Below, in pieces: positions 1 to 54,795 of a stretch of DNA of 64,000 nt. A model generated the notes under the pieces. The model was not told where the DNA came from, made no database searches, and was given only the letters and a program-made list of their open reading frames with translations. Position 1 is the stretch's first letter. Every line of letters starts with the position of its first letter. The position numbers were made by a program, and so were the translations under genes. The DNA comes from Candidatus Falkowbacteria bacterium (GTDB lineage: Bacteria; Patescibacteriota; Patescibacteriia; Patescibacteriales; WJLG01), in the NCBI GenBank assembly GCA_963747695.1, contig CAVVFV010000010.1, positions 5,618 to 69,617 on the forward strand. Direction: 5' to 3'.

Positions 1-50
1 TTAGTCATAACATTTTTATTATTTTTTTATATATTAATAATTATAGCATA

Positions 51-560
51 AAAATCCTAAATTTAAAATCCTAAATCCTAAACAAATCCAAATGTCCAAA
101 ATTCAAAATTAAAAACCGTTGCGATTAAAGATTATTGCCGGTTATTTTTTTCTGACTTTGTAATAATCGCGCCAAATATTTTCATCAATTCCACTGATTC
201 GTTAATCAACCGTTGTTTCTCTGCTTTTAAACTTAAATTGCTTCCTTCCTCAATCAACTTAAGCCAATAACGGCTTTCCTTGGCTTCCTTGCGGCTTATT
301 TTTATCCTAAAAATAAAGTCTTTTTTGCTTAATGATTCATTGGCCTCGATGTAATTAGCTCCTACAGAGCCGGATGATCTGATTACCTGTTTTGCATCCT
401 CGATATTGGCAATGGAACTCGGAATCACTTTAATAAATTTTCTTACCCGGTCGGCAAATTCCAATGTCCGATTTTCCAGATCATAGTAATTCACCCTCGC
501 TGTTTTGAACATTAGAATTTTGAATTTGTTTAGGATTTAGGATTTCGTGCTTAGAATTTA
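51..560. repeat. class-I hairpin cassette: inverted-repeat arms enclosing four-helix-bundle ORF 132..512
   Basis: 66..87 'aaatcctaaatcctaaacaaat' is the exact reverse complement of 524..545. Simple-sequence flanks (aatcctaaa / tttaggatt) extend the arms. Confidence 0.85.
132..512 (-). CDS. four-helix-bundle protein (23S rRNA intervening-sequence protein / DGR-Avd-like family)
   Basis: 126-aa ATG ORF. Family-typical motifs 'SSGSVGANYIEA' and 'RKEAKESRYWL'. About two-thirds identical by eye to ORF 6556..6930. Enclosed by a perfect 22-nt inverted repeat (66..87 / 524..545). Confidence 0.85.
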   Translation of the reverse strand: MFKTARVNYYDLENRTLEFADRVRKFIKVIPSSIANIEDAKQVIRSSGSVGANYIEANESLSKKDFIFRIKISRKEAKESRYWLKLIEEGSNLSLKAEKQRLINESVELMKIFGAIITKSEKNNRQ

Positions 561-1286
561 TTTGACGATCATCTTCCCGACCGCGCCAAGTTGGCGGTGG
601 CCATCAAAATCGGAATAAAATGTATATTCGCCAAGCTGAGTCGGAGCATTGAAAGGAATCGCCAAAGTTTGCCGCGGTTCCAAGCCCATCGCCACGGCGG
701 CCAAGAGCGGGCTGTCGAATTTAAAAACTTCCACCGAACTGGCAGCGGTAACCGACAACACCACCGCTTGTCCGGCGCTGACCGTGAATTCCGCGGGAAC
801 AATCGAATCGGGATTTATCGTTAATTTTATGGCGCTCGCCGGCAGTTTGCTGGCATCGATCGGCGCCGACTGCAAAGGAGCGTTGGCATCACCGGCCCGC
901 GTGCCGTTGGCCGCCGTTTCCGATCCATCGCGCGTCAAAACTTCGCCGGTTTTTTCCGAGATCGGATTGCTTTGCGGCGCGACCACCACGGCTTGTTCCG
1001 GAGTCGTAGTACCGTCGCCGTTGTCCCGATTAACCGTAATTACTTTGGCAATATTTCCTGCCGCGGGAGTCGAGGCTAAATTTTTCGTTTCCTCAATCAA
1101 TTTTTGTGTGGCTTGTTTGCCCGCTTCAATGCTCGTGGCCGGGGCTTGGCCGGTCTGGGCCGCGGGCGGATTTTTCGTTATGGTCTTCGGCGCAGAAAAA
1201 TTTTTCCAAATAAACAAGCCGGCGATAAAAACAACCAAAACGCCGATGATGACAGACATGATGATGATGGATTTTTTTGTGAACAT
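558..1286 (-). CDS. membrane-anchored secreted protein, C-terminal cupredoxin-like beta-sandwich (tentative)
   Basis: 242-aa ATG ORF. N-terminal TM helix 'IIIMSVIIGVLVVFIAGLFIW', an Ala/Thr/Pro-rich linker, and a C-terminal tail 'EYTFYSDFDGHRQLGAVGKMIVK'. The fold call is by eye only. Confidence 0.6.
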   Translation of the reverse strand: MFTKKSIIIMSVIIGVLVVFIAGLFIWKNFSAPKTITKNPPAAQTGQAPATSIEAGKQATQKLIEETKNLASTPAAGNIAKVITVNRDNGDGTTTPEQAVVVAPQSNPISEKTGEVLTRDGSETAANGTRAGDANAPLQSAPIDASKLPASAIKLTINPDSIVPAEFTVSAGQAVVLSVTAASSVEVFKFDSPLLAAVAMGLEPRQTLAIPFNAPTQLGEYTFYSDFDGHRQLGAVGKMIVK

Positions 1287-1295
1287 GCGGATAAA

Positions 1296-1731
1296 ATTGT
1301 TATATTGTTATACTGCTATATTGTTAATTTATTATTCGTAAAATTTATTAGGTGATAAATTTCTTTCGGTAATTTCGCCAATTCACCAAATATGTACCTA
1401 TACTCATCTTCGTTCAACAACTTTCTCACTCGAGATTTTTCATTCCAATCCAATGATTCTTTCAGAGATCCGATTGAATAACGATAAAACTTAATTTTGT
1501 CTTTTTTACTGTATCGGCCGAAACCTTCGGCAATATTTGCGTAAATGGAATCGGCAGCGGTAACAAATTGCTCCCCCAAAGAACTTTTATTAAAATAATC
1601 CCATTTTACTATTTTGCTCCAAATATAATTGGATAAATTAAAACTTATTTTGTAAGCGTTCAAGTCGTTGAGCGACAAAAATTTCCCCTCCATAAAATTA
1701 TAACAATATAGCAATATGACAATATAACAAT
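1296..1731. repeat. class-II hairpin cassette: inverted-repeat arms enclosing four-helix-bundle ORF 1316..1693
   Basis: 1296..1326 'attgttatattgttatactgctatattgtta' against the reverse complement of 1701..1731 gives 29/31 matches. Confidence 0.85.
1316..1693 (-). CDS. four-helix-bundle protein, divergent member of the IVS/Avd-like family
   Basis: Motif 'ANIAEGFGRYSKKDKIKFYRYSIGSLKESLDW'. The track ORF starts at a TTG (1714) inside the inverted-repeat arm; the ATG at 1693 (MEGKFLS...) is preferred. Confidence 0.8.
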   Translation of the reverse strand: MEGKFLSLNDLNAYKISFNLSNYIWSKIVKWDYFNKSSLGEQFVTAADSIYANIAEGFGRYSKKDKIKFYRYSIGSLKESLDWNEKSRVRKLLNEDEYRYIFGELAKLPKEIYHLINFTNNKLTI

Positions 1732-4032
1732 CTATTTAAGATTAACCAGCGCCATCACCCAGCCTTTGCCCGTATCCGCTTCAAGGGCTTTGCCGATTGC
1801 CGTACCGACTTTGGGGTTGATCGCTTTCATCGCTTCGCCGGAAACTGCCGAAGTCGTCAGCAGATCGCCCGGTTGGATCTTTCCGCCGGTGGCGTTAACC
1901 AAAACTTTTACCACGCCGGTCAAAGCGACGGGCGCGACAAACTTTCCTTCGACTTGGCCGATGACCATGCCCGGCTTTTCAGAAATTACTCCGATCACCG
2001 TCTGATCATAATTTTTATCGCAGGCGCGAGCTGATTTATAGCCCTGGTCGTCCATCACCAAAACCGTACCGGCCGGATAATTTTTGTCAGTATAAAACTC
2101 TTCGGCCACGTCGCCCGAACCGGCCGTGATCTGACCGGCAACTAACAGGTCGCCGGACTTGGTTACTCTTAATACATTAGTCGTGGTTGAGCTCGCCACG
2201 TCAAAAATATCGCTGATACCGGCGGCACCGGCTACCGTTAATTTGGCTGTTGCCGCAGTTGTTCCAACGCCGACGTTACCGGATATATAAGCGTTGCCGG
2301 CGCCGTAATTTGCTCCGGCGGCATTATAACCGACCAACAAAGAAGCGGCAGTTGAAACCTGGAAAGGATGAGTGGCGTCGCCCACGTATCTTATGCCATA
2401 TCCTTCAATGAATTTAGTGATGGCAAAAGTGCCGCTTTCAAATCCCAGCCCGGCTCCGGCAAGACTAATACCGATTGGCCCGTTTACGGTGAGAGTTTCG
2501 GCCGGATTGGTGGATCCGATGCCGACGCTGCCGGAGCCATAAGCTCCGCCGCCATCTAAAATGATGTTATCGTTTTGTTTGATAACAAAATCATAATGAG
2601 AAGTTGCCCCGCTATAAATTGACAGGTCATTAGTGCCAAGAACGGCAGAAGCGATTAAAGCGTAATAGAACGAGCCCTCCTTAGCCAAGTCAAACTCCCC
2701 CCCGCTGGTTCCGCCAGCCCTAATCACCGGCTGCGCTCCGCCGCTCACATGTAATGTTGCCATCGGGTTGGTCGTCCCAATGCCGACGTTGCCGCCGCTT
2801 AATATTGTAACTCTGGTAGTATCGTTAGTTCCCAGTTGCAGCGGATATGCCCCCGATTGATTCATCACAAAGGCATATGGCAATCCGCCGTTTGTTGTAA
2901 ACGCTGTTCCAGCGCTATTTTCAATACCAAAATACGCACCGGGAGTATTTGAAAAACTAAGGAAAGCGGCATTGGTAGCAGTAGTAGAGTGCAAATGTAT
3001 CCGCGCCGTTGCCCCTTCAACCTGTAAAGGAAACAAAGGGTTGGTCGTCCCAATGCCGACGTTGCCGCCGTTCTGAACTATTAAACGGGTAGTTCCAATA
3101 CCGCTGGCAACTGACATAAAATTAAATCCATTGCCATCTTCCCCTAAAAGATAGCCGGTATTGTCGTAAGTCCTGTTCAGTAATATAGCAGGCCAATATT
3201 GTGCCGTTAATTTCAAATTATTAGAAAAACCCTGATTGGTAAAATTATCTGCACTGGATATTATTTCTAATGCGCCGCCGGGATTGGTCGTCCCGATGCC
3301 TACGCCGTTTTTGTTTAAATTAAGTATTGATGAATAAGTCGTTCCGCCATTGATAATATCATATTGCCAACCGATCGTTCCGTTAACTGGATTATTTCCA
3401 TGGAGCTGCAAATAATAATTATTGGGTAAATCAGTTTCGTCCCGCCAAATTTGTCCGGTAACATAGCCATCAACTTCCAATTTAGCGCCAGGATTGGTCG
3501 TCCCAATGCCGACGTTGCCGGTGTTCATATTCCAAATATTTCCCCCCAATGTTCCGCTCCAAAATTTGGAAGATGAAGCCGCCCAGTCGACGTAATATTT
3601 GGAAGCGGCTTCATTGTTATTGATCGGGATGGTCGCCAATCCCACGACCCGATTGCCATCGGCGTCAATGACGTTGACGTTCGGGGCGGACGGACTGCTT
3701 ACCAATAAACTGGCGGCGCCCAGCGAGGAAGAAGCAATGGCTACCTTACCGTTATAAACGAAAAAATTAGATACGATTGACGGCGAAGTGGTACCGAGCT
3801 TCAAAGTCCCGTACTTGGTCTGATCGATCGGTAAAGCAGTGGATCCGGTGAAAATCGGCGGCGTAACATTGCCGCCAGTCGGACTGGCGGTCGGATTGGA
3901 CCAGTCAGCTAAGCCATAAAGCGCGTAAATAAAAACCCCCAACACGACAAAGGCGCCGAGAGCAAAGCCTAAACTCGAATCTTTTAAAGAATTTTGTATT
4001 TTAGTAAAATTGTCTTTTTGGGAAAACTGCAT
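1732..4032 (-). CDS. secreted fibre-like repeat protein (six GIGTTNP-type repeats; phage fibre/appendage-like C-terminal domain, tentative)
   Basis: 766 aa with an N-terminal TM anchor. Six spaced copies of G-[IV]-G-[TS]-T-x-[PA]...L-x-V. The DNA unit 'ggttggtcgtcccaatgccgacgttgcc' recurs near 2766, 3039, 3281 and 3492. The C-terminal 'GDVAEEFYTD...VIGVISEKPGMVIG' resembles autoproteolytic intramolecular-chaperone domains of phage fibres (recollection, unverified). Confidence 0.7.
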   Translation of the reverse strand: MQFSQKDNFTKIQNSLKDSSLGFALGAFVVLGVFIYALYGLADWSNPTASPTGGNVTPPIFTGSTALPIDQTKYGTLKLGTTSPSIVSNFFVYNGKVAIASSSLGAASLLVSSPSAPNVNVIDADGNRVVGLATIPINNNEAASKYYVDWAASSSKFWSGTLGGNIWNMNTGNVGIGTTNPGAKLEVDGYVTGQIWRDETDLPNNYYLQLHGNNPVNGTIGWQYDIINGGTTYSSILNLNKNGVGIGTTNPGGALEIISSADNFTNQGFSNNLKLTAQYWPAILLNRTYDNTGYLLGEDGNGFNFMSVASGIGTTRLIVQNGGNVGIGTTNPLFPLQVEGATARIHLHSTTATNAAFLSFSNTPGAYFGIENSAGTAFTTNGGLPYAFVMNQSGAYPLQLGTNDTTRVTILSGGNVGIGTTNPMATLHVSGGAQPVIRAGGTSGGEFDLAKEGSFYYALIASAVLGTNDLSIYSGATSHYDFVIKQNDNIILDGGGAYGSGSVGIGSTNPAETLTVNGPIGISLAGAGLGFESGTFAITKFIEGYGIRYVGDATHPFQVSTAASLLVGYNAAGANYGAGNAYISGNVGVGTTAATAKLTVAGAAGISDIFDVASSTTTNVLRVTKSGDLLVAGQITAGSGDVAEEFYTDKNYPAGTVLVMDDQGYKSARACDKNYDQTVIGVISEKPGMVIGQVEGKFVAPVALTGVVKVLVNATGGKIQPGDLLTTSAVSGEAMKAINPKVGTAIGKALEADTGKGWVMALVNLK

Positions 4033-4080
4033 AAAAATTTTATAGTCCCCGCTTGACGAAACGTTTTTAGCTCCGGCAGA

Positions 4081-4189
4081 TTTTTTAATTTTGTAATTTT
4101 TAAATTTTTAAAATAAATCCTAATTTTTAATTTTTAAAAATTAAGCCTTAAAAATTCTTTCAAAAATTTAAAAATTAAAAATTAATTTG
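4081..4189. repeat. AT-rich inverted-repeat element, family 'aaaattaaaaatt', copy 1
   Basis: The core at 4115..4169 is ~95% identical to 13366..13421. The outer arms 4081..4109 / 4162..4186 are complementary. Confidence 0.75.
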
Positions 4190-4197
4190 TGGGCTTT

Positions 4198-4554
4198 TCA
4201 AAATAATCCCTCGAAATACGGGACAAATATTATCAATCCGACGGCGATGGCCAAGATTGCGGCGATCATCACGGCCGCGGCCATGATATCTTTGGCGGCC
4301 ATCACCGACTCGTGGATCCTCGGCTTAAGCACGTCGGCCAGCCGTTCAATCGCGCTGTTGACCGTTTCCATCAGGATCACCAAGGCGATGCAGATCAAAA
4401 TGGCGCACCATTGCCAAGGCTGGATCTTAAAAACAAAGCCTAAAGCTATTACAATTATAGCAACTAATGAGTGAATCTGTAAATTTTGCTCCTCGCGAAA
4501 AATTTTGAACAAGCCGCGGAAAGCATAGCCGAAACTCTTGAATAAACGAATCAT
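4198..4554 (-). CDS. dgkA: diacylglycerol kinase / undecaprenol kinase family protein
   Basis: 118 aa with three TM segments. Motif 'EEQNLQIH...ETVNSAIERLAD...AKDIMAAAV' is typical of prokaryotic DAGK. Confidence 0.85.
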   Translation of the reverse strand: MIRLFKSFGYAFRGLFKIFREEQNLQIHSLVAIIVIALGFVFKIQPWQWCAILICIALVILMETVNSAIERLADVLKPRIHESVMAAKDIMAAAVMIAAILAIAVGLIIFVPYFEGLF

Positions 4555-4660
4555 TGTTATATTGTCATACTGTTATATTGCTATATTGCTGCGCAACGAA
4601 ATAAATATTTATTGTAATTTAAGACGTCACTTAACAATATAACAATATAGCAATATAACC
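4553..4660. repeat. 'empty' class-II hairpin between ybeY and dgkA
   Basis: Built from the same caatataacaa/ttgttatattg units as the arms at 1296..1731. A 17-bp perfect stem joins 4572..4588 and 4643..4659. The loop begins 'gcgcaacgaaataaata'. Confidence 0.75.
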
Positions 4661-4664
4661 TTTT

Positions 4665-5081
4665 TTACTTCTTACCTTTTTTTTTCAACTTACCAATAAA
4701 TTTTTCTCCTAAATTAATCATGTGTAGTCGGTCTTTTTCCGTCCGGTCATCGTAGCCGCCGAGGTGCAATAGGCCGTGAACCAGGATAAAGATCAACTCA
4801 TTTTGAAAGGCGTTGCCATTTTCTTTGGCTTGCCGGCGGATTTGCGCGGGATCGATGATAATTTCCCCAAAAAAATCTTCATCTCCACCAAAAGACAACA
4901 CGTCGGTCGGACAATTTTTCTTCCGGTAGCGGAAATTCAGCTGCTTCATCTTGGCATCGCCGATAAAGGCAATCGAAACATCTTGCTTGGACAAATTCCG
5001 GCTCCGCAAAAATTTTTCCGCCACCCCTTTTATCAACCGTTCGTTAATCTTAAATTTAGTCGTGTTATTAATCTCAATCAT
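4665..5081 (-). CDS. ybeY: rRNA maturation endoribonuclease YbeY
   Basis: 138 aa with the zinc motif 'HGLLHLGGYDD'. Confidence 0.9.
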   Translation of the reverse strand: MIEINNTTKFKINERLIKGVAEKFLRSRNLSKQDVSIAFIGDAKMKQLNFRYRKKNCPTDVLSFGGDEDFFGEIIIDPAQIRRQAKENGNAFQNELIFILVHGLLHLGGYDDRTEKDRLHMINLGEKFIGKLKKKGKK

Positions 5082-5087
5082 TTAAAT

Positions 5088-5220
5088 AAATCTGAAATAC
5101 AAAATCCAAAAATAAATTCAAAATCCGAATAACAAAAATTCTAATCGTTTTGAATTTTGAATTTTTAACATTTGAATTTGTTTAGGATTTCGTGCTTAGA
5201 ATTTCGGATTTGATTAGAAT
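5088..5220. repeat. 'empty' class-I hairpin (no ORF in loop) upstream of ybeY
   Basis: 5174..5211 'gaatttgtttaggatttcgtgcttagaatttcggattt' matches the leader motif at 522..559 and 6940..6978. Nested pairings are 5136..5144/5196..5204 (9 bp) and 5119..5129/5203..5212. Confidence 0.7.
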
Positions 5221-5222
5221 AA

Positions 5223-5284
5223 TGTCGGGAATAGACCCTCCCCGTCTCCGCCAGGGGCAGAGCCACCCCTCCCGGGGAGGGGAC
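5223..5284. repeat. GC-rich REP-like hairpin element (intergenic)
   Basis: 'ccaggggcagagccacccctcccggggaggggac' is related to the reverse complement of the 60357.. terminus ('ccaggggctgtccacccctctcaagagggg'). Confidence 0.65.
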
Positions 5285-5288
5285 GTTT

Positions 5289-6413
5289 TTATTTCAGCGT
5301 AAAGCTATTAATCATCATCAAGAAAATATGGTAATAGGCGGGATTGCTGTCTGCTGCCGGCACATAAGAAATGGTATAGATATTATTTTTCCCCGCGTCA
5401 GCCAGATAAAATATTTCTCGATTCTGATGAAAGACGCCTTGCCAGCCGTTCTTGGCGACGACGGCGGCATCGGTGACCGGAGTATCCGGGAACTGGCTGT
5501 TGTACCAATCTTTGATCGACAAGTTGCCGGTATCGGGCATCGCGACGATCTCGATGAAAGAATTATCAGCGGCCGAAAAAATGATCGACTGGCCGCTGTT
5601 CAAATCCTGCGCCTGCCAAATTTTCGGATAATCAATGCTGAATTTGGCGGCCGTGTCCTGATAAACCGCGATATGCGGATTGTCGGTGATCTTGCCCGCG
5701 CCAGCCGGATTGTAAAGACTCAAGACTTCCGCCCCATCGGTATAACCGTCGCCGTCCGTATCGGCTTTATTCGGATCAGTGCCGAAAATAGCTTCTTCGG
5801 CGTCGGAAAGGCCGTCATGATCGGAATCGACTACGTTGGCAGCCAAAGGCAAACCGTCATGGGCTAAAGTGGAAGAGGCCGAAAAAGCGGTGGTGGAGGT
5901 GGCAACCGGCGGAGTGGAAGTGGCTATGATTAGCGCGGTGGAAGAAGAAATAATCGTGGAAGTGGCCGGAGTCGTTGGCGCCGGGGCCGTCGGCGCGCTC
6001 GTGGTCGCCACTATCGGAGGAGTAGTCGAACCGACTGGCGCTGAAACCGGCGGAGGCGTAACCGACGGTTGAGTCACTGTTGGCGGAACAGATACGGCCG
6101 GCGTTTTAACCGCCGGTTTCGGATTGATTAAAAATATATAAGCCAAATAGACAGCCGCGATCATTACCAAAACCCCGACAATCATAATCACTGCTCCGAT
6201 CACGGTGGTTTTTTTATCCCCCGTCTTCGAGCTGATCTTAAACTTGCGCGGCATAGTGCGGATTTTGATATTTTTTTCAATCTCTTCGTCGAGATTGACC
6301 TTGGGCGCGCTGGCAGCCGCCGCCGAAAAAATCCGGCCGCTGTCTTTTTCGTCTGCCGGCGTATTATCCTCCGGCTCCATTATCTGCCCTTTAAATCCAG
6401 ACATAAATTTCAT
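5289..6413 (-). CDS. single-pass membrane protein with Pro/Thr/Ser-rich stalk, TSP3-like Ca-binding repeats and a C-terminal globular domain
   Basis: 374 aa. TM helix 'VIGAVIMIVGVLVMIAAVYLAYIFLI'. Repeat 'DSDHDGLSDAEEAIFGTDPNKADTDGDGYTDGAEV'. Function unknown. Confidence 0.7.
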   Translation of the reverse strand: MKFMSGFKGQIMEPEDNTPADEKDSGRIFSAAAASAPKVNLDEEIEKNIKIRTMPRKFKISSKTGDKKTTVIGAVIMIVGVLVMIAAVYLAYIFLINPKPAVKTPAVSVPPTVTQPSVTPPPVSAPVGSTTPPIVATTSAPTAPAPTTPATSTIISSSTALIIATSTPPVATSTTAFSASSTLAHDGLPLAANVVDSDHDGLSDAEEAIFGTDPNKADTDGDGYTDGAEVLSLYNPAGAGKITDNPHIAVYQDTAAKFSIDYPKIWQAQDLNSGQSIIFSAADNSFIEIVAMPDTGNLSIKDWYNSQFPDTPVTDAAVVAKNGWQGVFHQNREIFYLADAGKNNIYTISYVPAADSNPAYYHIFLMMINSFTLK

Positions 6414-6480
6414 GATTAAATGTATAATGGTAAAACCTATCTTTCCCCTGAAAAATCCTGAAGGGAAATTAAATAATACT

Positions 6481-6978
6481 TTAAATCCGAAGCTAGAAAT
6501 CCGAAATCCGAAACAAATCTAAAATCTCAAATCAGTAAAAACTAAAATTTTAATTTTATTCCTCTTGGGTTGAATTTCTTAAAATAGCTCCGAAAATTTT
6601 CATTAATTCCGTTGCCTCATTGGCTAAAAAATTTCTTTCCCGCGCCGCATTCTCGTAATTTCCGCAATCAATTAAAATTAGCCAGTATCTGCTTTCTTTG
6701 GCCTCCTTGCGACAAATCTTTATTCTTAAGATAAAATCTTTTTTACTTAAAAAATTATTAGCTTCGATATAATTTGCACCCACCGAACCGGACGATCTTG
6801 CCAATTGTTTCGCATCTTCAATATTTGATGTTGAAAACGGAATAACTTTTAGAAAATTTCTAACTTTGGCTGCGAAATTAAGTGTTCTCTCTTCCAAATC
6901 ATAATAATTAATTCTCACTGTTTTGGTCATTGGAATTTTAAATTTGTTTCAGATTTCGTGCTTCGGATTTCGGATTTA
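6481..6978. repeat. class-I hairpin cassette enclosing four-helix-bundle ORF 6556..6930
   Basis: 6497..6512 pairs perfectly (16 bp) with 6962..6977, and 6511..6518 pairs with 6942..6949. The right arm carries the conserved 'aatttgttt.ag.atttcgtgctt.g.attt' motif. Confidence 0.8.
6556..6930 (-). CDS. four-helix-bundle protein (IVS/Avd-like family)
   Basis: 124-aa ATG ORF. 'SSGSVGANYIEANNFLSKKDFILRIKICRKEAKESRYWL'. Bracketed by inverted repeats 6481..6528 / 6932..6978. Confidence 0.85.
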   Translation of the reverse strand: MTKTVRINYYDLEERTLNFAAKVRNFLKVIPFSTSNIEDAKQLARSSGSVGANYIEANNFLSKKDFILRIKICRKEAKESRYWLILIDCGNYENAARERNFLANEATELMKIFGAILRNSTQEE

Positions 6979-7039
6979 TGACATGACTAAAAAAGATTAA
7001 ATTTTCAGATTGATATCGTGCTTTTTTGCTTTCTAATTC

Positions 7040-7867
7040 TTACTTCAGCTTTCCCGGACCGAGCGGATTGTAACCATTCTGGACTTCCGAGCCGTCAGTG
7101 TAGCCGTCGCCGTCGGTGTCCGGATTATTCGGGTCGGTGTGATAGACTTTCACTTCCTGATAATCGGTTAAGCCGTCATTATCCGAATCCGCTTTGTTAG
7201 GATTGGTATGATAGATATTGATCTCATCATAATCGGACAGGCCGTCCCCGTCAGAGTCAAGCGTCGAAGCCGAAGAAGACGCGGAAGATGAAGCGACTAC
7301 CGGAGAAACCGGCGACGTTGTGGCGATTGGTATGACCGGCGTAACGGTCGGCGGGGTCGAGACGACCGGACTCTCTGGAGTCGTCACCGCCGGAGCGGCC
7401 GGTTGTGAAACATTATTCTGATTGACGGGTGATGCCGGAGCGACATTATTGATCACCATCGTTTGGCCGGATTGTTTGGTGAAGATGCCGCTCAAATCGG
7501 AAAATTTGCTTGCCCAGCTCGACGGGTTAGTGATCTCCACTCCCATAAATTTTCCGGCGATGAAAATTGCCAGACCGATAATAAGCAAAATTATTACGAT
7601 CGTTATGACCGCTCCCCAGACTTTGCCGGAAGATTTTTCCCTCGGCACGGACGGAATTTTTGCGGCGGGCGAAGCGGCGCCCGGCATTTTCGGCGCGGCG
7701 CCGATATCCTTGACGCCGGCAAACATATCTTCAACCGGCGCGGTTTTTGGAGCCGGAAAAGATCCGGCCGCCGGCATTGCCGGAGCATTACTCCCCGCTC
7801 CCGGAGCCGAAGCCGTGGTTTTACCGGTTAAATTTTGCCCCTGATTTTGATCTAAATTTTCAAACAT
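7040..7867 (-). CDS. single-pass membrane protein with TSP3-like Ca-binding repeats
   Basis: 275 aa. TM helix 'VWGAVITIVIILLIIGLAIFIAG'. Three DxDxDGxxDxxE repeats ('DSDGDGLSDYDE', 'DSDNDGLTDYQE', 'DTDGDGYTDGSE'). Same architecture as 5289..6413. Confidence 0.7.
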   Translation of the reverse strand: MFENLDQNQGQNLTGKTTASAPGAGSNAPAMPAAGSFPAPKTAPVEDMFAGVKDIGAAPKMPGAASPAAKIPSVPREKSSGKVWGAVITIVIILLIIGLAIFIAGKFMGVEITNPSSWASKFSDLSGIFTKQSGQTMVINNVAPASPVNQNNVSQPAAPAVTTPESPVVSTPPTVTPVIPIATTSPVSPVVASSSASSSASTLDSDGDGLSDYDEINIYHTNPNKADSDNDGLTDYQEVKVYHTDPNNPDTDGDGYTDGSEVQNGYNPLGPGKLK

Positions 7868-8008
7868 AACGATTTATTTAGCATGCGACATATTAAATGC
7901 GACATGTAATATTAATATTTTTTATTTTATTCACTAAGATCAGGGAACATAGAACATGGATCAAAGATCATTTTTTATTGTTCTTTGCTCTATGATCTAT
8001 GCTCTTCG

Positions 8009-11000
8009 CTATTGGCTCTGGCAGGTTCCATTGGTACCGCAGGACGAACCGGCGGCTTTGCCATTACAGGCGTTTTTAGCGGCAGCCGGATCGGAACAGA
8101 CAATATTCTTACCGAAAAAATAAGATTCTTTCAGCAAGTCTTGGCAAGTTCCGCCCGCGCCGCAAGCCGCGCCGACCGGCAAACCGGTGCAGGTACCCGG
8201 AGCGTTAGTATCAGTACAATCCAAATTCGAACCAAGCGAAGTGACCGGATTGGTTACCGTGGGCAGATCGGCAGCGCTGCCGCCATTGTCGCGGCAATAA
8301 TACAATTCATAATTCATCGGATTGCAGACGGAATTCAGCGGATTCGTCGGGGACTTGACGCAGCCGCCGCCCAAAACCGCATCCAAAGTATCAAACCAGG
8401 GGCGCCAAGGAATTCCTTGCGACTGCAGATTATCCGGCCAGGTGGAAGAACACATAAAGACATAAACATCAGCCGTGCTTGAGGCGTTAGGATTTGGCAC
8501 GCTTTGATTGACATCCGTGAAAGTTCGAGTGTCGGTCAGATAAACTTTGGCTAAAAGCTGGGCTTGGGCATCGACAACTCCCGCTACCGCCCGAACCAAT
8601 TGCTCCGGAGCAACATAATCAAAAGGCTGAATAATGCCATTGTTGTTATTATTAACGAAATTGACCGCCAGGGTATTGCCGTTCTGCCAACTCCAAGTCC
8701 AGGAATATCCCTTTACCGGATGAAGGACCTGATCGTCGGCGGACAAGGCGGCGGCGGTGAAAGCTTTATCGTTGTCGGCAGCCGTATCAAAAGTCTTCGA
8801 GGTAGGATCGTTGTCGTTTTCATTCAAATCACTGTTGGAGTGATTGATCAGATAAGAATCGGGGGAAATAGAAACGTGGTCAATGCCGCAAATGCCGTCA
8901 TCTTCGCCGCTGGCTTGTTTGGTCTTGAACCACCAAAGGTAAGAATTAGTGAAAGCGACACCGTCAAATTGAGAGTAATTGGCCACCGGACTAGCGGAAC
9001 CAAAAACATTCAAGCCGATATCCCAGTAACTTAATACGGCGCCGGTAGTGGTGGACAGATCATGCACACCCCTGACCACGGCATAATAAACAGTGTCCGG
9101 TTCAAGGACGATCGAAGGTTGGAAATTAAGGATCGTCTTATTATCCCCTTCCTCGGCGCTGGAAACATTTCCCGGCACGGAGCAATAAAGATGAGAATTA
9201 TCCGGCACATTCGCGAGGCTCTGCTTACCAAACAGCCAGGTTAAATGTTCGCGCGCATCAGCCAGCAATTTGTCGTAAGTTTTCTCAAAAATATTTTTAT
9301 TCTGCAGGCTCACGTTCGCCGTTCCGATCTGGGTCGTGCCCGAGGCGCACTTGGCGTCGCCCGCCACTTCCTCGATTAAAATAAAATCATCATTAAAACT
9401 TCCGGTGTCCATCTTTTGATTGAAAGACACGCCCAAGTCGGCGTTGGTGCAAACATTGGTTACGCCGTTATCAGGCGTGATGGTGGAAACGCTGGGACGG
9501 GCGCGGCAGCAGGAATCCATGCCGCAGCCTTGATAATCCGGTGTTGCTCCCGGCGGAACGCAGCTGTCATTGCCTTGGCAGCCGCAGCAAAGTCCGCGGC
9601 TATCGCCCGAGCAAGGAGTCTGATTCTTTCGGCAGGACAAAGCGGAATTCAAACCCAAATCATGACAAGCGTCGTAAGTGGAGGCATCGGTTTTATCCGC
9701 TCCGATTTTAGTCGGATCGCAGCAGCAGAAGCCGCAACCGGCCGCGGCCGGTTTATCCGGAGCTTTCGCTCCGTTGTCGAGGAGACAACTGAAAGGACCG
9801 GAGCAGATGCCTAAATTGCAAGTATCAGGCTGGTTCTGATTTTGGCAGCTGACGCCCAAGAGAGAATTGGAAGATCCGCATTTATCATTGCACTCGGCCG
9901 AGGAAGGGAAGAATGGGCTGGCCGGCAAACTGGTCGGAGTCGAACAGCCGGCGGCATTATCGCCGCACTGAAAATAACCGCAAAAAGTACTGCCTTGATA
10001 ATTCACGATCGGTAATATATCGCCCAATGTATTGTCATAAGATAAATTCTTACAATTGCCGCTTTGCCGATCAACGCAGCAAGCGCCGGAATGATCGCGG
10101 CAGGAAGCGGCATCGGACATCGCCGCGCAATCGCGGCAAACTCCGTCGGGAAAATTAGTAGTGTCAGAGGTATCGCAGAATTGCCCGGTATGCGCGGCGC
10201 AACTGCAGGCCGCATCGGAACCGGCAACGTCTACCTGGCCGGCATTCGGACCGGAAGAGAAAAGTTTTTTGCAGCCGCCGCAAGAACCGTAAGTCGTCGG
10301 ATTGGCCTTGCCGACATCGCTGCCGCAAGTCCCCTCGCATTTCAAGGGAGCACAACAATCCTGGTTGGCATTGGCTTTCTGACAGCAGCAAGGACAAGTA
10401 TTCCCTGGAGCTTTTTCGCATTGTCCGCTGACGCAAGTTGAACCGCCGGCGCAGACCTCACTCGCCGAACCGCAAACGCCTTGATGCGAAGCGGGCTGGC
10501 TCGGATCGGCCAAACAGTCTTGCTTGGCATTGAGGCAGATCGAGCACGGGGTCGCGGTGTCGACACAAACCGGGATGCCCTGAACATCAATGCCGCGAAG
10601 ATTGAATTTTGCCGAACAGCGGGGACCGGCCTTATACATATAATAGTAGAAGAGATTATTGCTCACATCTTTATAAGCGCCGCAATAAGTATCATGAGAG
10701 TTGCCCAAATCATCGACGGTGGTGCTGGCTAAATCGCAAACCTCGCTATGGCCGCCGGTATTTTCCACACATCTGTTGAGTTGAGAACTATAAACGCAGG
10801 TGCCGGAGTCACAACCGGGCTGATCCTGGCAATGCGAATCATCGCAATTAACTGTCGGCGAAAAAGGCTGCAAAACAGGACTGCCGGTTAAAGGCGAACA
10901 CTCGCCCGGAACATTGGGACAAGTCAGTCCCAAAGTGCAGGCGCCGGTCGCGTTACTTATTTCCTCACAGCTTCCCGGAGCAGTCGGGGAAGCAATCGGC

Positions 11001-13333
11001 GTAACATTGGTGCTGAATTTGAATTCGTAAACCGAGGTCGAAGCGGTCGCCGAACAATCAGTGGTTAGGTTAGCCACGCAAGTGCCGGCTTTGGCGGTAT
11101 CAGCCCCGCAGCAATGTTCGTCCGCGCCGCAAGCCGTATCCTGTTTCGGCGCGTCAAGACAACTGCCGACGGAAAAATTCAAGCCATTGCCTTCCAAAGC
11201 GTTGGCGGGCGAGGAAGCATTTTTGACTACGGTCACCGGACCGGTGGCGGCCGACGACGGTACAGCCGTGGTGATCGTATTCGGCGTGTTATCGCCATCC
11301 CAGGTAAGCTTGGCAGCGCCGCTCACTGGTTGATTATGAAAAAATCTGACCAGACTGTTGGATTCATCAAAGGTGGAAAAATATTCTCCCCAGAGATTAA
11401 CTTGCGTACCGACAACTCCGATTACCGGGCTGATCTTGCAGAGCGACGGCTTCAACGGCAAGCTCGTGTCAACTTTGAAACTTTGCGGCGTCGCGCCCGC
11501 CGAGGTCAGCGTCTGGCCGTTTTCCAATTTGACCGTTAAAATATCATTAAAATTCGAAAACTTTGGATCAGTACTGACTGGCACCTTAACAATAATCTGC
11601 TGATCGCTCCAAGTACTATCTTTGCAGACAGGTGGGAAATCGAGATCGGCTAGCGTACCATTAGTGACGGTGCCGAAATAGACCTGGCTCTTACCCTGGA
11701 TGTTGCCGAAGCCGTTGCCGCGGATGGTAACGTATTGTCCGATATTGCCGGTAACCGGTTCAAAGGATGAAATAAAAGCGCCCAAGGCCGGCGTAGAACT
11801 GTTGGTAAAAGCGAGATAGTTGCTATTCTGCTGGCTGTCGGAATTATAGACAAAGGTGGTGGTCTGGCCCGGATTGAAATTAGGAACGATCGCCGAGCCG
11901 GCATTGCTGCCGAAAGCCGAATTGACCCCCATAATCGAGGCGCCGTAACTGCCGAAATCGGCCGCGGCCGCCGAGCTGAAATTGACGCCATTATAAAAAA
12001 CGCTGCTGCCCAGTTTGCCTTCGGGCGTTACCTGGCAAAGGCCGGGCCGGGTTATCGAATTCACGACAAAATCTTTTATTTTCGGTCCGCGCGAATCATT
12101 GGTTAAATCGGTTTTGTCATCAATGGTGGTTACCCTGATCGGTCCGTCTTTGGCGCCTACCGGAACGACGATGATGATCTGATTGGCAGCCCAGGACGAA
12201 ACGCAATTGCGATTGGCGGTTTTAGGAAGATCGCCGGCCACGAAACCGCCGGCGCCGTTGGAAAATTCCACTGTGCCGGTAGCATCGCCGAAATATTGTC
12301 CGCCGAGAGAAATAATATTACCCACGGCGCCGTTGGGCGCGGCAGTATCACAAGTCGAACCCGGACAATCAGTATCTTTAGTACAAATCTTATTATGGTC
12401 GCTATCGCAAAAACCGCCGACCGGACTCACCCAATCGATGACCGGATATTCCTCGCAAGTGCAAGCTTTAGCGCCGGTGGTTTCGCAGGTCAAATTATTG
12501 GAGCAAAGATTACTGTCCGGCCGGCAAACTCCGGCCGTGGTAGTGGCATTACAGGGAGCGCCGACTCCGACCGAAGGAGCGCATTGGCAAGTGCCAAAAT
12601 CGCAAGCCGAATTATTATAGCAATTATCAATCGCTTGGCAGCCGGGCGCCGAATTCACATCACAGGGTCCGCCGTCGTTCGCTTGCGGCTGGCAAGTACA
12701 AGGGTCGGCCGCGTTAGGATCGCAAAAATGGGTGCTATCGCAAGCGCCGTTATCTTCACATACTCCGGGCGTAGTCGCGCCATTGCATGAAGTTCCGGTG
12801 CCGCCGGCCGTCGGGCACAAGCAAGTAGACATATCGCAAGAACCGACATCGCAGACGCCGCCGCAGGCGCCCAACGCCGCGGTGCCGCCGCACGGCTGGC
12901 CGGCTCCGCCCGTTCCGGGTAAGATCGAACCGCCGCCGCCGGTAGTAGTGCCGGTGGTGCTGACGCCGGTCGCATTTAAAATTGAGTTAAGGATAAAGGT
13001 GGCGATGGCGAAAGCCGAAAGGATGATCAGTAAACCGATCACTGCCGAAACCAGAACTTTTTTGGCCGTGGTGATCTTTTCTTCGTCGCCGGAGGCCGTC
13101 ATCCATAAAAATCCGCCGTAGATTATCAAGCCGATGGCGATCACGCCTAAAAATCCCAAAGCGATCCGGATAATATTGCCGACGATCAGCCGCGGATCGG
13201 TCGCCACCAATCCGGTGGCATTGCCATAGCTTAAGCCCAAATCCGCCCCCTGGGCCAACGCCAAACCGGCAAAGGCGAAAAGGCCAGCTAAAAGAGTTAG
13301 GGCTATAATTATTTTTTTTGATGGTTCAGACAT
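8009..13333 (-). CDS. giant cysteine-rich surface protein with N-terminal TrbC/VirB2-like 'pilin' module and IPT/TIG- and SbsA-like Ig domains
   Basis: 1,774 aa from the ATG at 13333 (the track start at 13339 is GTG). N-terminus 'YGNATGL..TDPRLI...YGGFLWMTASGDEEKITTAKKVL..IGLLIILSAFAIATFILN'. Two Cys-dense blocks at about 12440..12900 and 9500..11160. Ig-like segments lie between them. Confidence 0.85.
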   Translation of the reverse strand: MSEPSKKIIIALTLLAGLFAFAGLALAQGADLGLSYGNATGLVATDPRLIVGNIIRIALGFLGVIAIGLIIYGGFLWMTASGDEEKITTAKKVLVSAVIGLLIILSAFAIATFILNSILNATGVSTTGTTTGGGGSILPGTGGAGQPCGGTAALGACGGVCDVGSCDMSTCLCPTAGGTGTSCNGATTPGVCEDNGACDSTHFCDPNAADPCTCQPQANDGGPCDVNSAPGCQAIDNCYNNSACDFGTCQCAPSVGVGAPCNATTTAGVCRPDSNLCSNNLTCETTGAKACTCEEYPVIDWVSPVGGFCDSDHNKICTKDTDCPGSTCDTAAPNGAVGNIISLGGQYFGDATGTVEFSNGAGGFVAGDLPKTANRNCVSSWAANQIIIVVPVGAKDGPIRVTTIDDKTDLTNDSRGPKIKDFVVNSITRPGLCQVTPEGKLGSSVFYNGVNFSSAAAADFGSYGASIMGVNSAFGSNAGSAIVPNFNPGQTTTFVYNSDSQQNSNYLAFTNSSTPALGAFISSFEPVTGNIGQYVTIRGNGFGNIQGKSQVYFGTVTNGTLADLDFPPVCKDSTWSDQQIIVKVPVSTDPKFSNFNDILTVKLENGQTLTSAGATPQSFKVDTSLPLKPSLCKISPVIGVVGTQVNLWGEYFSTFDESNSLVRFFHNQPVSGAAKLTWDGDNTPNTITTAVPSSAATGPVTVVKNASSPANALEGNGLNFSVGSCLDAPKQDTACGADEHCCGADTAKAGTCVANLTTDCSATASTSVYEFKFSTNVTPIASPTAPGSCEEISNATGACTLGLTCPNVPGECSPLTGSPVLQPFSPTVNCDDSHCQDQPGCDSGTCVYSSQLNRCVENTGGHSEVCDLASTTVDDLGNSHDTYCGAYKDVSNNLFYYYMYKAGPRCSAKFNLRGIDVQGIPVCVDTATPCSICLNAKQDCLADPSQPASHQGVCGSASEVCAGGSTCVSGQCEKAPGNTCPCCCQKANANQDCCAPLKCEGTCGSDVGKANPTTYGSCGGCKKLFSSGPNAGQVDVAGSDAACSCAAHTGQFCDTSDTTNFPDGVCRDCAAMSDAASCRDHSGACCVDRQSGNCKNLSYDNTLGDILPIVNYQGSTFCGYFQCGDNAAGCSTPTSLPASPFFPSSAECNDKCGSSNSLLGVSCQNQNQPDTCNLGICSGPFSCLLDNGAKAPDKPAAAGCGFCCCDPTKIGADKTDASTYDACHDLGLNSALSCRKNQTPCSGDSRGLCCGCQGNDSCVPPGATPDYQGCGMDSCCRARPSVSTITPDNGVTNVCTNADLGVSFNQKMDTGSFNDDFILIEEVAGDAKCASGTTQIGTANVSLQNKNIFEKTYDKLLADAREHLTWLFGKQSLANVPDNSHLYCSVPGNVSSAEEGDNKTILNFQPSIVLEPDTVYYAVVRGVHDLSTTTGAVLSYWDIGLNVFGSASPVANYSQFDGVAFTNSYLWWFKTKQASGEDDGICGIDHVSISPDSYLINHSNSDLNENDNDPTSKTFDTAADNDKAFTAAALSADDQVLHPVKGYSWTWSWQNGNTLAVNFVNNNNNGIIQPFDYVAPEQLVRAVAGVVDAQAQLLAKVYLTDTRTFTDVNQSVPNPNASSTADVYVFMCSSTWPDNLQSQGIPWRPWFDTLDAVLGGGCVKSPTNPLNSVCNPMNYELYYCRDNGGSAADLPTVTNPVTSLGSNLDCTDTNAPGTCTGLPVGAACGAGGTCQDLLKESYFFGKNIVCSDPAAAKNACNGKAAGSSCGTNGTCQSQ

Positions 13334-13342
13334 TGACACGCT

Positions 13343-13440
13343 TTATAATTTTTTAATTTTTAAAGAAATCCTAATTTTTAATTTTTTTAAAAATTAAGCC
13401 TTAAAAATTCTTTAAAAATTACAAAATTACAAAATTAAAT
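13343..13440. repeat. AT-rich inverted-repeat element, copy 2
   Basis: Shares its core with copy 1. Shares both termini with copy 3 ('ttataattttttaatttttaaa' and 'tttaaaaattacaaaatt'). Confidence 0.75.
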
Positions 13441-13446
13441 CTTCTC

Positions 13447-16400
13447 CTAGGGGCAATCTCCGTTGGCGTCCAATTTACTCGTCGCCACGCCGTAACAGCA
13501 GGAAGGCTGCGTTGTCGAAACATTCTTGCAGGTCGACTGATCGCCGGACGGTTTGAAACAATTTTCATGGATATCGCGCACCGCCGAACCGGCCTGGGCG
13601 CGGTAATCGGAAGATTCGCCGAAATCGCTATGCTTGATGATCGCATTGGTCTGGATCGGCGCGTTACCGCCAAAAAGCGTTTCGGTTTGGATCCAATAGC
13701 CGATCGGATTATCCGCCACATTCCAGAGGTTGATATTCTTATGAGTAACTGGCCCTTGGCCGGTATCAATCACAGTCGAGCCGGTAACCAAAGTGGAAGC
13801 CATCATCAATTTATTGAAATTGATTTTGATATCCTGGCTCAACTTCGGCACTTCGCCCGCGGCCGGTGAAACCGACGTCACGATCGGCGCCGAAATATCC
13901 ATCTGATCATTGACATAAAAACTCCAGGAAAAATTATCGCCGTTGGCGCAATAATAAGTAGGGATATTCACCTGGCCACAAGTGGCGGAACTGACCGCGT
14001 CTTGTCGGCAAGCGACATAACCTGGTTCATTTTCGTTCTCGTCAAAGATAAAAAGATTTCCCGAGCTATCTTTGACGGCGCCAGGCAAACCGATGTCTTT
14101 CATTTCCTTATTCATCAAATTCAGGCATCCCGTCGCACCTAGGGCGGTACATCCACCGACAGTATAATATTTGTAATTTCCGGCGTCGGGGCCGGTAATT
14201 TCTCCCAATACTTTGTCCTGTTTGATTCGGGCGGCGATCACGGCCTGGATGATCGTTGAAAAATTATCCTGGCAAGACTGATTATTGGAATAGATCGGCG
14301 GATTATCGCTGTAAGTCGCGGCCGGACCGTCGGCAAAACTATTCCGGTCGCCGTCCAAAGAATTGAAAGCCGCGTCAGTCACGCCATCCGGCCCGCCAGC
14401 TGGCGCGGCCTGAATATTGGCCGCGGGATAGCGGCGGACTTCGGGAGCGGTGGCAGCATAATTGCCGCCCAGATTCTCACTGCAAATATTATTGATGCAT
14501 TGATCGTAGGCTTTGCCATTGACATTCTTAGCGGCGCAATCGGCATTAGTATCGCAATGCGCCAAACTCGCCGCTTTGATAACGACTTCAAGGTGGCTGT
14601 TGGGCGGCAGACAATAGATCGGTTCGCCGCAACCATTGACGCCGCAAGGGACATTACTGGTGAACTCCACGGTCTGATAAAGATTGGCGATGGCGAAAGT
14701 TCCTTGCAAATATTCGTTGCTGCCGGCGCAAATTTTATTGGAACAAGTGAAAGATTTACAGTCAGCGGCCTGCGCGCAACCGCCGCCAGCGGACTTGGCG
14801 TTCGGATCGGCATTGACCACTTGAATTGCTGAAGCGTCAGTGGCGGCCCCGGCCACATTGGACGGCAAGATCGGCTCATTGAAATTTATCTGGATGACCG
14901 TGTTCATCGGCTGGTCAGGCTGGTTGCCGGCCGTGCTGACGTTGGGGTCGGCCGTGCTTGAACCGTCATCGCCGCCTTTCATATTAGTAATCGAGAGCGC
15001 GCCGGAATTATCCGGAGAATTAAAAGATAGGTTGATATTATTACCGGCCGCGCCGGCAGCGGCCGCCGAAACCGTTACTTGAGCGCCGGAAACCGCAACC
15101 GTGATGTCGGTCTGTTTGCCTAAAGCGGCGGCAATATTATTCGCCGTATCCGCGGCTGTCGCGCCCACGGCGATTTCATTATCCTGAGTCGATTTTTTTA
15201 CAAAAGTATAAACGAGCGATCCTGCTTGCAAAGAATCGGCCTGTCGGGCGGCCGTAATCGTAACTGTCCAGGCATCGCCGGCCTTGACATCAGCGTGAGC
15301 AGTCAGAGAAAAAGGATATTTACCGGTAAAGAAAACTGTCCGGCCGCTAAAGATGGCTGAGCCTAAATTTGATCCGTCAATCAATGTCGCCGTAGCAGTT
15401 AATCCGTCCGGCAAAACAACTACTTTGATAACTGCGCTTAAATCGGCATTTTGATTCACCGTGGTATCAGCGTCAGGAGTAGGCGAAGCTGAAACTGTTT
15501 TGGCCGCCGAACTGGTAGCTGCCACAAAATATTGCGGCGGTTTGCGGCAGATGCCGGCATTGACCGTGATTGAGCCGACCGCGCGCGCGGCGAAAACCAG
15601 GTTAGCATTATCCCGGCCGTTGTCCGGCGGCGGAAAGACTCCGCTTGAAACAACCTGCGGCGGAGTAAGATCGATCTTATTGGAAACTTGGAATTGCCAA
15701 TTCAAACTGCCGGCGCAACCGGAACCGCTAAAAGCCGAGCTATGGTCGCTCGTCCGCGTAATCCCGCCGAGCAGATTGACCGTGTACCAGACATTGTCCG
15801 TTTCCGAACCCAAATATTGCGCGGGAATAAAAGTAAATGTTTTATTATTATCGGAAGATATTACTTTGGTATCAATTAAAGGATTGCCGCTGTCGCTGGA
15901 TTTATAAATTTGGACGTTGGTCGTATTGATCGTCGAACCGGCGGCGCAATTTCCACTGGCATCGACGGAAGCGCAAACGGTTTTTGCATCGACCGATTCC
16001 TTGAAAGTGATGAAGATCGCCGTATTCCGCGGCACTGCCATCTGATTGGGCACCGGATAGACATTCTGGACGCTGCATTCGCCGATCGCTCCGGCGCCGT
16101 TGATCCCTCCCCCGGGCGGTCCGGAGGGATTATTGCCGGCTCCTCCGCCGGCTCCGGTCGCGCCCAACAATTGGTTCAAAATAAAAGTCGCGATGGCAAA
16201 AGCGGAAAGGATGATCAGCAAACCGATAATGGCGCTGACCAAAGTCCGCTTGGCCCGGTCGATCTGCTCCTCATTGCCGGCCGCCGTCATCCACAAGAAC
16301 CCGCCGTAAACTATCAAGCCGAGGGCGATGACTCCCAAAAAACCCAAAAAGATCTGGATGATCCGGCCGATGATCAGCCGCGGATCGGTCGCGCCAAGGC

Positions 16401-16518: not shown

Positions 16519-16520
16519 TA

Positions 16521-16713
16521 TCGTATTTCGTATTTCGTATTTCGTATTTTGACTGCCCAGCGATTTGCTCTTGAATTTTGGGCGTAAAAATACAAAAAAC
16601 GCCAGACGAATCATTGACTAATCCCCACTGTTGTTATTAAATTAGATTATACCATAAAATGCCAAGAGAATAAAATATACGAAATACCAAATACGAAATA
16701 CGATATACGAATT
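16521..16713. repeat. 'cgtatttcg/cgaaatacg' inverted simple repeats flanking the divergent promoter region
   Basis: Left arm 16521..16550 ((tcgtattt)n). Right arm 16672..16713 (its imperfect complement), abutting the rel ATG. Confidence 0.7.
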
Positions 16714-21039: not shown

Positions 21040-21090
21040 GCCATTTATCAACAGCGGCAAACAACCAGAGACAAAGTAATTAAAAAAAAT

Positions 21091-21192
21091 GTTATACTGC
21101 CAAATTGTTATATTGTTACGCAACGAAATAAATAACAATGGTGTTTATTAAAATCGTTGCGTAACAATATAACAATTTAACAATATGACAAT
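21091..21192. repeat. 'empty' class-II hairpin, 25-bp perfect stem
   Basis: 21102..21126 'aaattgttatattgttacgcaacga' is the exact reverse complement of 21154..21178. The 27-nt loop begins 'aataaata', as in 4553..4660. Confidence 0.85.
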
Positions 21193-54221: not shown

Positions 54222-54242
54222 AAATATTTTAATTAATAATTA

Positions 54243-54330
54243 AAAATGTAAATCTCAAAATGCAAAATTATAGAATTCGCCTGAGGCAAAAAAATACTAA
54301 TTAATTTTTCATTTTGACATTTTCATTTTA
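54243..54330. repeat. 'aaaatgNaaat' hairpin immediately downstream of tRNA-Pro
   Basis: Arms 54243..54269 / 54303..54330 are imperfectly complementary. Same family as 54796..54847. Confidence 0.7.
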
Positions 54331-54340
54331 CACTACTTTG

Positions 54341-54785: not shown

Positions 54786-54795
54786 GAAAATACTG

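Follow-up and report, generated by a model that had tools for sequence, protein, structure and literature searches.

The site at 5088–5211 lies directly upstream of ybeY in the 64-kb stretch of DNA analyzed here, which we refer to as the window. All genes in positions 1–13339 of the window are encoded on the minus strand. In transcription order, the gene for a 1776-aa protein is followed by those for two TSP3-repeat proteins (7040–7867 and 5289–6413), YbeY (4665–5081), DgkA (4198–4554), a 766-aa protein, and a cupredoxin-like protein (558–1286). Six operon junctions in the window are occupied by additional elements, three with a small ORF between the operon genes (6556–6930, 1316–1714, and 132–512) and three without. 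All three small ORFs match PF05635, “23S rRNA intervening sequence protein,” and TIGR02436, “four helix bundle protein.” A gap of 6 nt separates the ORF-less element at 5088–5211, which takes up the spacer, from the ybeY start at 5081. Between it and the stop codon of the TSP3-repeat gene is a GC-rich element with terminator-like stems (5226–5285, minus strand), in which terminator-like sites occur at 5244–5226 on the minus strand and 5266–5282 on the plus strand. This GC-rich element lies outside the class-I element.

Two of the small ORFs belong to full class-I cassettes on the minus strand. Cassette 1 (47–564) has arms at 47–118 and 497–564 around ORF 132–512, and cassette 2 (6482–6979) has arms at 6482–6539 and 6916–6979 around ORF 6556–6930. 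Each folds with a terminal stem of ~50–60 bp. The two proteins are 68% identical, and the closest solved structure to the window protein is 2RLD. The class-II cassette (1296–1731, minus strand) carries octamer arms (ATTGTTAT) around a divergent PF05635 ORF (about 1316–1714), whose product shares only 29% identity with class I over 77 residues. Tandem Repeats Finder (TRF) resolved the class-I arms as tandem heptamers and the class-II arms as tandem octamers. Two more ORF-less hairpins, both on the minus strand, lie farther along the operon: one of class II directly downstream of ybeY, between ybeY and dgkA (4553–4659), and one of an AT-rich class III between dgkA and the 766-aa gene (4081–4190).

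Other periodic hairpins were seen in the window. A second ORF-less class-II hairpin with octamer ATTGTTAT arms is present at ~21090–21190. The arms of class III are of the TTTTTAAT type, and its apex (AAGCCTTAAAAATTC) is conserved; this class is ORF-less in the window and is common to the window and related genomes at differing junctions, with further sites at ~13350–13450 in the window and in loci L158 (6990–7095 and 7515–7580) and L003 (6177–6311). AT-rich periodic hairpins at ~54220–54340 and ~54790–54860 lie between tRNA genes (54341–54411, 54714–54785, and 54859–54930), which hints that such hairpins also occupy tRNA operon spacers. In a divergent intergenic region, four copies of CGTATTT (16520–16550) and AAATACG-type heptamer arms (16677–16710) are ~125 nt apart; the T-rich arm comes first, the reverse of the class-I polarity, and the class-I arm HMM matches these arms weakly (E = 1.6e-4 and 0.013). 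An AT-rich periodic hairpin at ~59470–59600 has AATTTTC-type arms and a GC-rich apex (ccctggccgcgtcccgcgtccgcgggcagg) that recalls the GC-rich apical stems of many metagenome class-I hairpins.

A sequence-only reading of the region had described the site upstream of ybeY as an “empty” class-I site whose leader is nearly identical to those of both class-I ORFs. We aligned the site pairwise with the full cassettes, using the end blocks alone. Its first arm, or leader (5146–5211, minus strand), consists of tandem heptamers ending in a conserved ATG region, and TRF reports a period of 7 at 5148–5179. The leader is identical to that of ORF 132–512 in 48 of 49 aligned columns, with one 3-nt and two 7-nt gaps, and to that of ORF 6556–6930 in 33 of 37. 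These alignments score 130 and 124 against dinucleotide-shuffle means of 79 and 87 (sd 6.7), placing them 5.6–7.8 sd above the shuffles. The AAGCACGAAATC signature unit (5186–5197, minus strand), which is not of low complexity, has three exact matches in the 64 kb, at the ORF-less site and in the two class-I leaders; for matches with up to one mismatch, 0.62 are expected in the window. The 5′-arm HMM, trained on metagenome copies alone with no window sequence, scores 5211–5146 on the minus strand at E = 3.8e-13 (45 bits) and the two full class-I cassettes at E = 2e-13 and 1.2e-12. The claimed likeness to both leaders is therefore borne out. By arm HMM, the three class-I copies are confined to 7 kb, with none in the other 57 kb of the window, and the site is identical in L001 (ERR11748453), an independent short-read assembly of the same organism. 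Just upstream of cassette 2, AAGCACGATATC at 7012–7023 (minus strand) is the class-I signature with one mismatch, and this partial leader could be what is left of a further arm, or a nested insertion.

The second arm (5088–5145, minus strand) adjoins ybeY and is degraded, with its heptamer pattern kept. It scores 9.5 bits (E = 0.05) with the arm HMM, versus 23–33 bits for second arms in full cassettes, and pairs with the first arm by way of mismatches and G-U pairs. It also aligns to the 3′ trailers of both class-I cassettes. Together, the leader match, the HMM, and the second-arm alignment place the site in one family with the two class-I cassettes as their ORF-less counterpart, as had been proposed. 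The minimum-energy fold and the family-consistent pairing agree in joining 5088–5146 to 5150–5211, forming one imperfect hairpin of ~125 nt with a ~10-nt apex at 5142–5151. The paired arms announced by the earlier reading are thus real, but the shorter arms that it listed, closing a loop of ~50 nt, are not the main structure. Those short complements exist as an alternative register because the heptamers are repeated. Region 5088–5211 folds at –30.5 kcal/mol (z = –3.9) on the plus strand and at –26.4 kcal/mol (z = –2.6) on the minus strand, so the hairpin is slightly more stable on the antisense than on the gene-sense strand. In the minus-strand fold, the AAGCACGAAATC unit is unpaired as a 7-nt bulge. 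The ORF-less stem is much weaker than those of the full cassettes, whose arms-only folds reach –50 to –54 kcal/mol.

As claimed previously, the four-helix-bundle ORF is missing. The only reading frame from the conserved arm ATG spans 17 codons (MLKIQNSKRLEFLLFGF; 5171–5118, minus strand). It is similar to the N-terminus that the arm encodes in class-I proteins, a likeness that does not in itself speak for translation. In class-I proteins, the first eight codons (consensus MTKKKNSK) lie in the inner arm, and ORF-less copies, 5088–5211 among them (MLKIQNSK...), conserve the ATG-containing unit. The earlier reading had suggested a search for ORF remnants, and none is detectable at this site. Across the ORF-less copies, a protein HMM on forward loop translations and a DNA HMM on both strands likewise found none, the exceptions in this search being a truncated ORF in L119 and a reverse-orientation ORF in L130. 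In-frame “LEF” codons at 5145–5137, like residues 17–19 of the protein, were considered as a remnant and not counted because TTAGAATTT is also an arm unit. A shared ATG unit with no remnant is compatible with two histories, in one of which the ORF was cleanly lost and in the other of which a hairpin captured one. A 176-bp deletion in the ORF of one Coxiella strain shows that loss does occur (PMC4990558).

We also compared the hairpin with other known kinds of element. It is AT-rich, has a stem of ~55 bp, and has no T run behind it, and so does not qualify as a Rho-independent terminator; around the hairpin, no terminator-like sites were found except in the adjacent GC element at 5226–5285. No sigma-70-like promoter site was found in the leader of the ORF-less copy. 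Rfam 15 identified only tRNAs in the window and nothing at E up to 5 in positions 1–7100. On other copies of the family, the sole Rfam matches fell below threshold and were to models of long-hairpin miRNA precursors; we consider them spurious.

Next to the window copies, the family was followed in public metagenomes with the pattern AAGCACGAAATC-N(2–10)-AAACAAATT, which has 21 specified bases; since it was drawn from the window, the counts cover copies with the exact leader only. The pattern occurs in at least 120 contigs. Conservation extends beyond it to aaatYcgaaatYcg upstream and cRAATGaccaaaat..caaaac downstream, and the class-I arm unit takes the form of CKAANNN heptamers. Partner arms were sought by local alignment of the reverse complement of the leader to downstream sequence within 130 nt and were found in at least 58 of ~112 evaluable copies, with ~13 more just below threshold. 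At least 58 of the copies listed are short ORF-less hairpins. The class-I motif adjoins many unrelated genes, but with this many paired arms it is not the generic promoter or UTR element lacking them that the sequence-only reading had set against its own proposal.

Among the matches listed, a PF05635 ORF occurs in the loop of 4 of 121 metagenome copies (L063, L119 truncated, L137, and L130 reversed), for an ORF-less to ORF-bearing ratio of ~30:1. The elements in these listed matches have a GC content of 0.23–0.49 versus 0.35–0.69 for their flanks, nearly always span the entire gap from stop codon to next start, and lie between genes in 35 tandem, 4 convergent, and 2 divergent contexts. In the short hairpins, 102 of 207 variant first-arm positions are matched by a corresponding change on the other arm. 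In 42 of 50 short hairpins, the triplet opposite the GCA of the AAGCACG unit is not complementary to it; the opposite arm there reads ..CGATATTCG.., and the GCA is unpaired in all three window copies too. The resulting 3 × 3 internal loop is conserved ~20 bp from the stem base in metagenome loci L030–L149 and is possibly a recognition or cleavage determinant. A scan of viral contigs gave only three matches; therefore, the family is not notably phage-borne.

Intervening sequences (IVSs) in rRNA have been known since about 1990. They take the place of a helix tip in an rRNA gene (helix 9, 25, or 45 of 23S) and are cut out of the transcript by RNase III, with no re-ligation of the ends. An S23p ORF is found in the IVS at helix 45 in Coxiella, Leptospira, and Brucella, and short ORF-less IVSs are found in Salmonella, Yersinia, and Campylobacter. 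The 23S genes among the fetched loci were located with E. coli rrsB-rrlB as the BLAST query. The helix-45 region of 23S rRNA (E. coli ~nt 1164–1185), the classical IVS site, is replaced by a class-I hairpin in L030, and in L079, one lies within the helix-63 region (~nt 1710–1750). Class-I copies at these two helices, together with the PF05635 ORFs, identify the family as the classical rRNA IVS type. The 23S hairpins (L030, ~7700–7950, minus strand; L079, ~6940–7130) have small GC hairpins on either side, with similar sequences in the two loci (CTTGTGC..GCACAAGG and CTCGCGC..GCGCGAG), and L079 has an extra insert of ~1.6 kb near helix 45.

Site 5088–5211 is thus an IVS-type hairpin sitting in an intercistronic spacer. 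It has the long-stem terminal inverted repeats of an IVS and, by TRF, tandem heptamers in the arm that lies upstream of the S23p start in both full cassettes; it lies outside any rRNA gene and lacks the optional S23p/PF05635 ORF in its loop. In Coxiella, the IVS at helix 45 closes with a terminal stem of 28 bp, its S23p start is preceded by three or four tandem heptamers, depending on the strain, RNase III excises it, and its ORF is decaying; in several bacteria, RNase III cuts IVS stems with the architecture seen here (PMC4990558). A survey of insertions in CPR rRNA genes also turned up 23S_rRNA_IVP ORFs, along with numerous unclassified short inserts at known IVS sites (PMC11270868). PF05635 genes have also been noted between cas genes, which fits insertion in mid-operon (PMC3936711).

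The arm classes travel with the proteins. The class-I protein has at least 8,000 database relatives, the best of which are 63–76% identical, and their source names include Levybacteria, Falkowbacteria, Nitrospirae, Thermodesulfobacteriota, Sedimentisphaerales, and Deltaproteobacteria. When class-I homologues were chosen by protein alone, heptamer arms were present in four of four (by source name, Nitrospirae, Sedimentisphaerales, Thermodesulfobacteriota, and Deltaproteobacteria). All four occupy operon junctions, and one separates the genes for the large and small aconitase-family subunits. The class-II protein has ~70%-identical relatives in Bacteroidetes and CPR, and octamer arms of the YATTGYTW type flank three of three class-II homologues chosen in the same way (Bacteroidetes and Pacebacteria). 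Arm class therefore follows protein subfamily in all seven, which suggests that the four-helix-bundle protein recognizes its own arms. In two of the Bacteroidetes loci (L155, 1159–1566; L156, 1114–1524), a small PDDEXK_3 (PF13366) ORF lies one junction upstream of the class-II ORF, and these ORFs suggest a second family of small junction-inserting genes.

The sequence-only reading found the position of the site next to ybeY worth remarking on but allowed that it might be coincidence. Gene order is conserved in related Patescibacteria, and the same junction can be compared directly. There is no spacer between TSP3a and ybeY in L004 and L005, and the junction is tight or overlapping in L004, L005, L014, and L018. 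L002 has an octamer-type hairpin there, L003 yet another periodic hairpin, and L158, a genus-level relative with 72–87% nucleotide identity, a class-III hairpin. Apart from the same organism (L001), the arm HMM found no class-I arm in 232 kb of related loci, and 30 related ybeY loci lack one. With the junction of relatives empty or holding a hairpin of another class, 5088–5211 is a gain in the window’s own lineage, unrelated to ybeY, and coincidence is the reading that prevailed. L158 has neither class-I cassette, and the class-II cassette, present as an orthologous copy, is the only one it has in common with the window; it also lacks the class-III hairpin 4081–4190, and its spacer there is 7 nt. 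Comparison of relatives at six junctions of one conserved operon thus reveals differences in presence or absence at orthologous sites, as MITEs show, and the hairpin family turns over quickly between related genomes. The ybeY–dgkA spacer of L002 (4388–5407) holds four GC-rich tandem repeats of ~120 nt and a GIY-YIG nuclease-like ORF, and junctions occupied by hairpins in the window therefore gather other selfish elements too.

We consider it likely that 5088–5211 is an ORF-less, partly decayed copy of an IVS-type hairpin, gained in this lineage and only incidentally next to ybeY, and we infer that its transcript would be processed by RNase III. The flanking genes are without exception on the minus strand, which makes it probable that TSP3a, the hairpin, and ybeY are transcribed together. 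Its transcript would fold into imperfect double-stranded RNA of ~55 bp, and by analogy with rRNA IVS stems, RNase III would cut this stem between the two cistrons. Co-transcribed repeat hairpins of the Correia type in Neisseria are a precedent, as they can bind RNase III and be cut or protected by it (PMC2649163). Read-through into the hairpin is uncertain because of the terminator-like GC stem just upstream (5226–5285), and the degraded stem may be a poor RNase III substrate, in which case the copy would effectively be neutral selfish DNA. No RNase III signature motif was found within the 64-kb window, the part of the genome that was covered.

Somewhat doubtful, in our estimate, is an element that acts as DNA, in which the heptamer arrays bind the cognate four-helix-bundle protein, or the palindrome extrudes as a cruciform or single-strand hairpin for copying or insertion, with RNA cleavage as a side effect. 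The strict 7- or 8-nt period of the arms and the tie between arm class and protein subfamily agree with this. Among 35 short hairpins, fold stability is symmetric between the gene-sense and antisense strands (20 vs 15, p = 0.63), and orientation relative to the flanking genes is unbiased (20 vs 15). With no sense-strand preference, a role at the RNA level is not favored over a palindrome at the DNA level. However, no DNA-binding or catalytic activity is known in standalone PF05635 proteins, no target-site duplication was found among 58 hairpins, and the IVS stems built alike are cut as RNA by RNase III in several bacteria (PMC4990558).

It is unlikely that the site is a solo leader that cassette 1 or 2 donated, by gene conversion or ectopic recombination, to an existing AT-rich heptamer spacer, rather than a hairpin inserted on its own. 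Such an event would account for a first arm 98% identical to the cassette-1 leader beside a second arm of just 9.5 bits, and for the clustering of the three class-I copies inside 7 kb. Against it, the second arm aligns to both 3′ trailers and pairs along its full length, and many ORF-less hairpins elsewhere are laid out in the same way. The arm HMM also over-scores the arm with the selected motif, and the asymmetry in arm scores is therefore partly ascertainment.

Selection by the host for a regulator of ybeY, whether a processing site, stabilizer, attenuator, or terminator, seems very unlikely to us. The hairpin does fill the spacer up to 6 nt from the ybeY start, and long hairpins of the Correia type can change expression through RNase III (PMC2649163). 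But the 30 related ybeY loci have no class-I hairpin, the tight and overlapping junctions (L004, L005, L014, and L018) show that ybeY needs no such element, and L002, L003, and L158 hold unrelated hairpin classes at this junction. Furthermore, the second arm is decaying, and the same element lies by unrelated genes in many other genomes. Finally, in an AT-rich, periodic region with many other periodic hairpins, spacers of low complexity might resemble one another by chance, or the motif might belong to a generic promoter or UTR. This reading is refuted (we give it next to no credence) by the shuffle scores (z 5.6–7.8), the HMM match (E = 4e-13), the shared CGTGCTT signature, and the failure to find a sigma-70-like site in the leader or an Rfam family match.

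How an ORF-less hairpin of the IVS type comes to be copied is a further question. The sequence-only reading had called the site a MITE-like, non-autonomous element. It is indeed the ORF-less counterpart of ORF-bearing cassettes, but the likeness to MITEs is only an analogy, because neither a target-site duplication above background nor a transposase was found. The flanking direct repeats of 58 hairpins follow the distribution of a swapped-flank control, with stem boundaries that are imprecise. ORF-bearing partners with the same arms encode only the ~120-aa PF05635/TIGR02436 four-helix bundle and no transposase, and none is known in the PF05635 family. Insertion into a pre-existing host stem was not detected either, as flank pairing averages –9.1 kcal/mol versus –9.0 kcal/mol in controls (p = 0.50). 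One scheme, in our view rather unlikely, is that the four-helix-bundle protein serves as the specificity factor of a hitherto unrecognized sort of mobile hairpin. Its subfamilies would each recognize their own heptamer- or octamer-repeat arms and promote the copying of the hairpin into operon spacers and rRNA helix tips, and ORF-less copies would be mobilized in trans, possibly by way of RNase III-released RNA and a reverse transcriptase, by analogy with the part that Avd plays in diversity-generating retroelements. If true, rRNA intervening sequences would thereby gain both an origin and a mechanism; their origin, mobility, and function and the role of the S23p ORF are still called unclear (PMC4990558).

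Site 5088–5211 itself is an ordinary member of its family. What the analysis adds is a sequence-defined family of IVS-type hairpins that is abundant outside rRNA, in operon spacers of hosts with widely differing GC content, and is mostly ORF-less, with discrete arm classes that go with discrete protein subfamilies. Our literature search, which covered sources outside subscription, found no description of these arms, and IVS-type hairpins with class-specific arms in operon spacers across phyla appear to be undescribed in the searchable literature. For the annotation of Patescibacteria and other compact genomes, this means that hairpin elements, rather than promoters or terminators, explain many AT-rich spacers here and in relatives. 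It also turns the old IVS puzzle into testable questions: binding of the protein to its arms, cutting of the stem in mRNA, and mobilization of ORF-less copies in trans.

Several known systems resemble parts of this family. The accessory protein Avd of diversity-generating retroelements (DGRs) is a homologue of PF05635 and shares its fold family with the ORF product of the full cassettes, and PF05635 (PDB 2GSC) has been tied to Avd (PDB 4DWL) (PMC10053308). Unlike a DGR, the window cassettes have no reverse transcriptase, template repeat, or variable repeat nearby, and the likeness concerns the cargo protein, not the hairpin at 5088–5211. REP/BIME and ERIC sequences are also repeated intergenic palindromes in operons with a possible effect on mRNA fate. 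REPs are ~35 nt long, GC-rich, lineage-specific, and linked to RAYT transposases, whereas the arms of the window family are 50–60 nt long, AT-rich, built of heptamers, and common to several phyla. Correia elements (CREE/NEMIS) of Neisseria have ~26-bp terminal repeats around a core, make TA target duplications, and are confined to one genus. Like other MITEs and the hairpins described here, they are small, ORF-less inverted repeats that are intergenic and variably present, and they are co-transcribed, as 5088–5211 probably is. The window family differs from them in being a heptamer palindrome over the whole element, in its spread across phyla, and in that no target-site duplication or transposase partner was found. 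The rRNA IVSs differ from 5088–5211 and the window cassettes in location, since the latter lie between protein-coding genes, and in heptamer sequence, which is GACAGAT in Coxiella versus CKAANNN in the window family. The two share long terminal inverted repeats, an extended stem, and an optional PF05635/S23p ORF in the loop, as well as heptamers upstream of that ORF, AT-richness relative to the host, sporadic occurrence, and ORF decay (PMC4990558).
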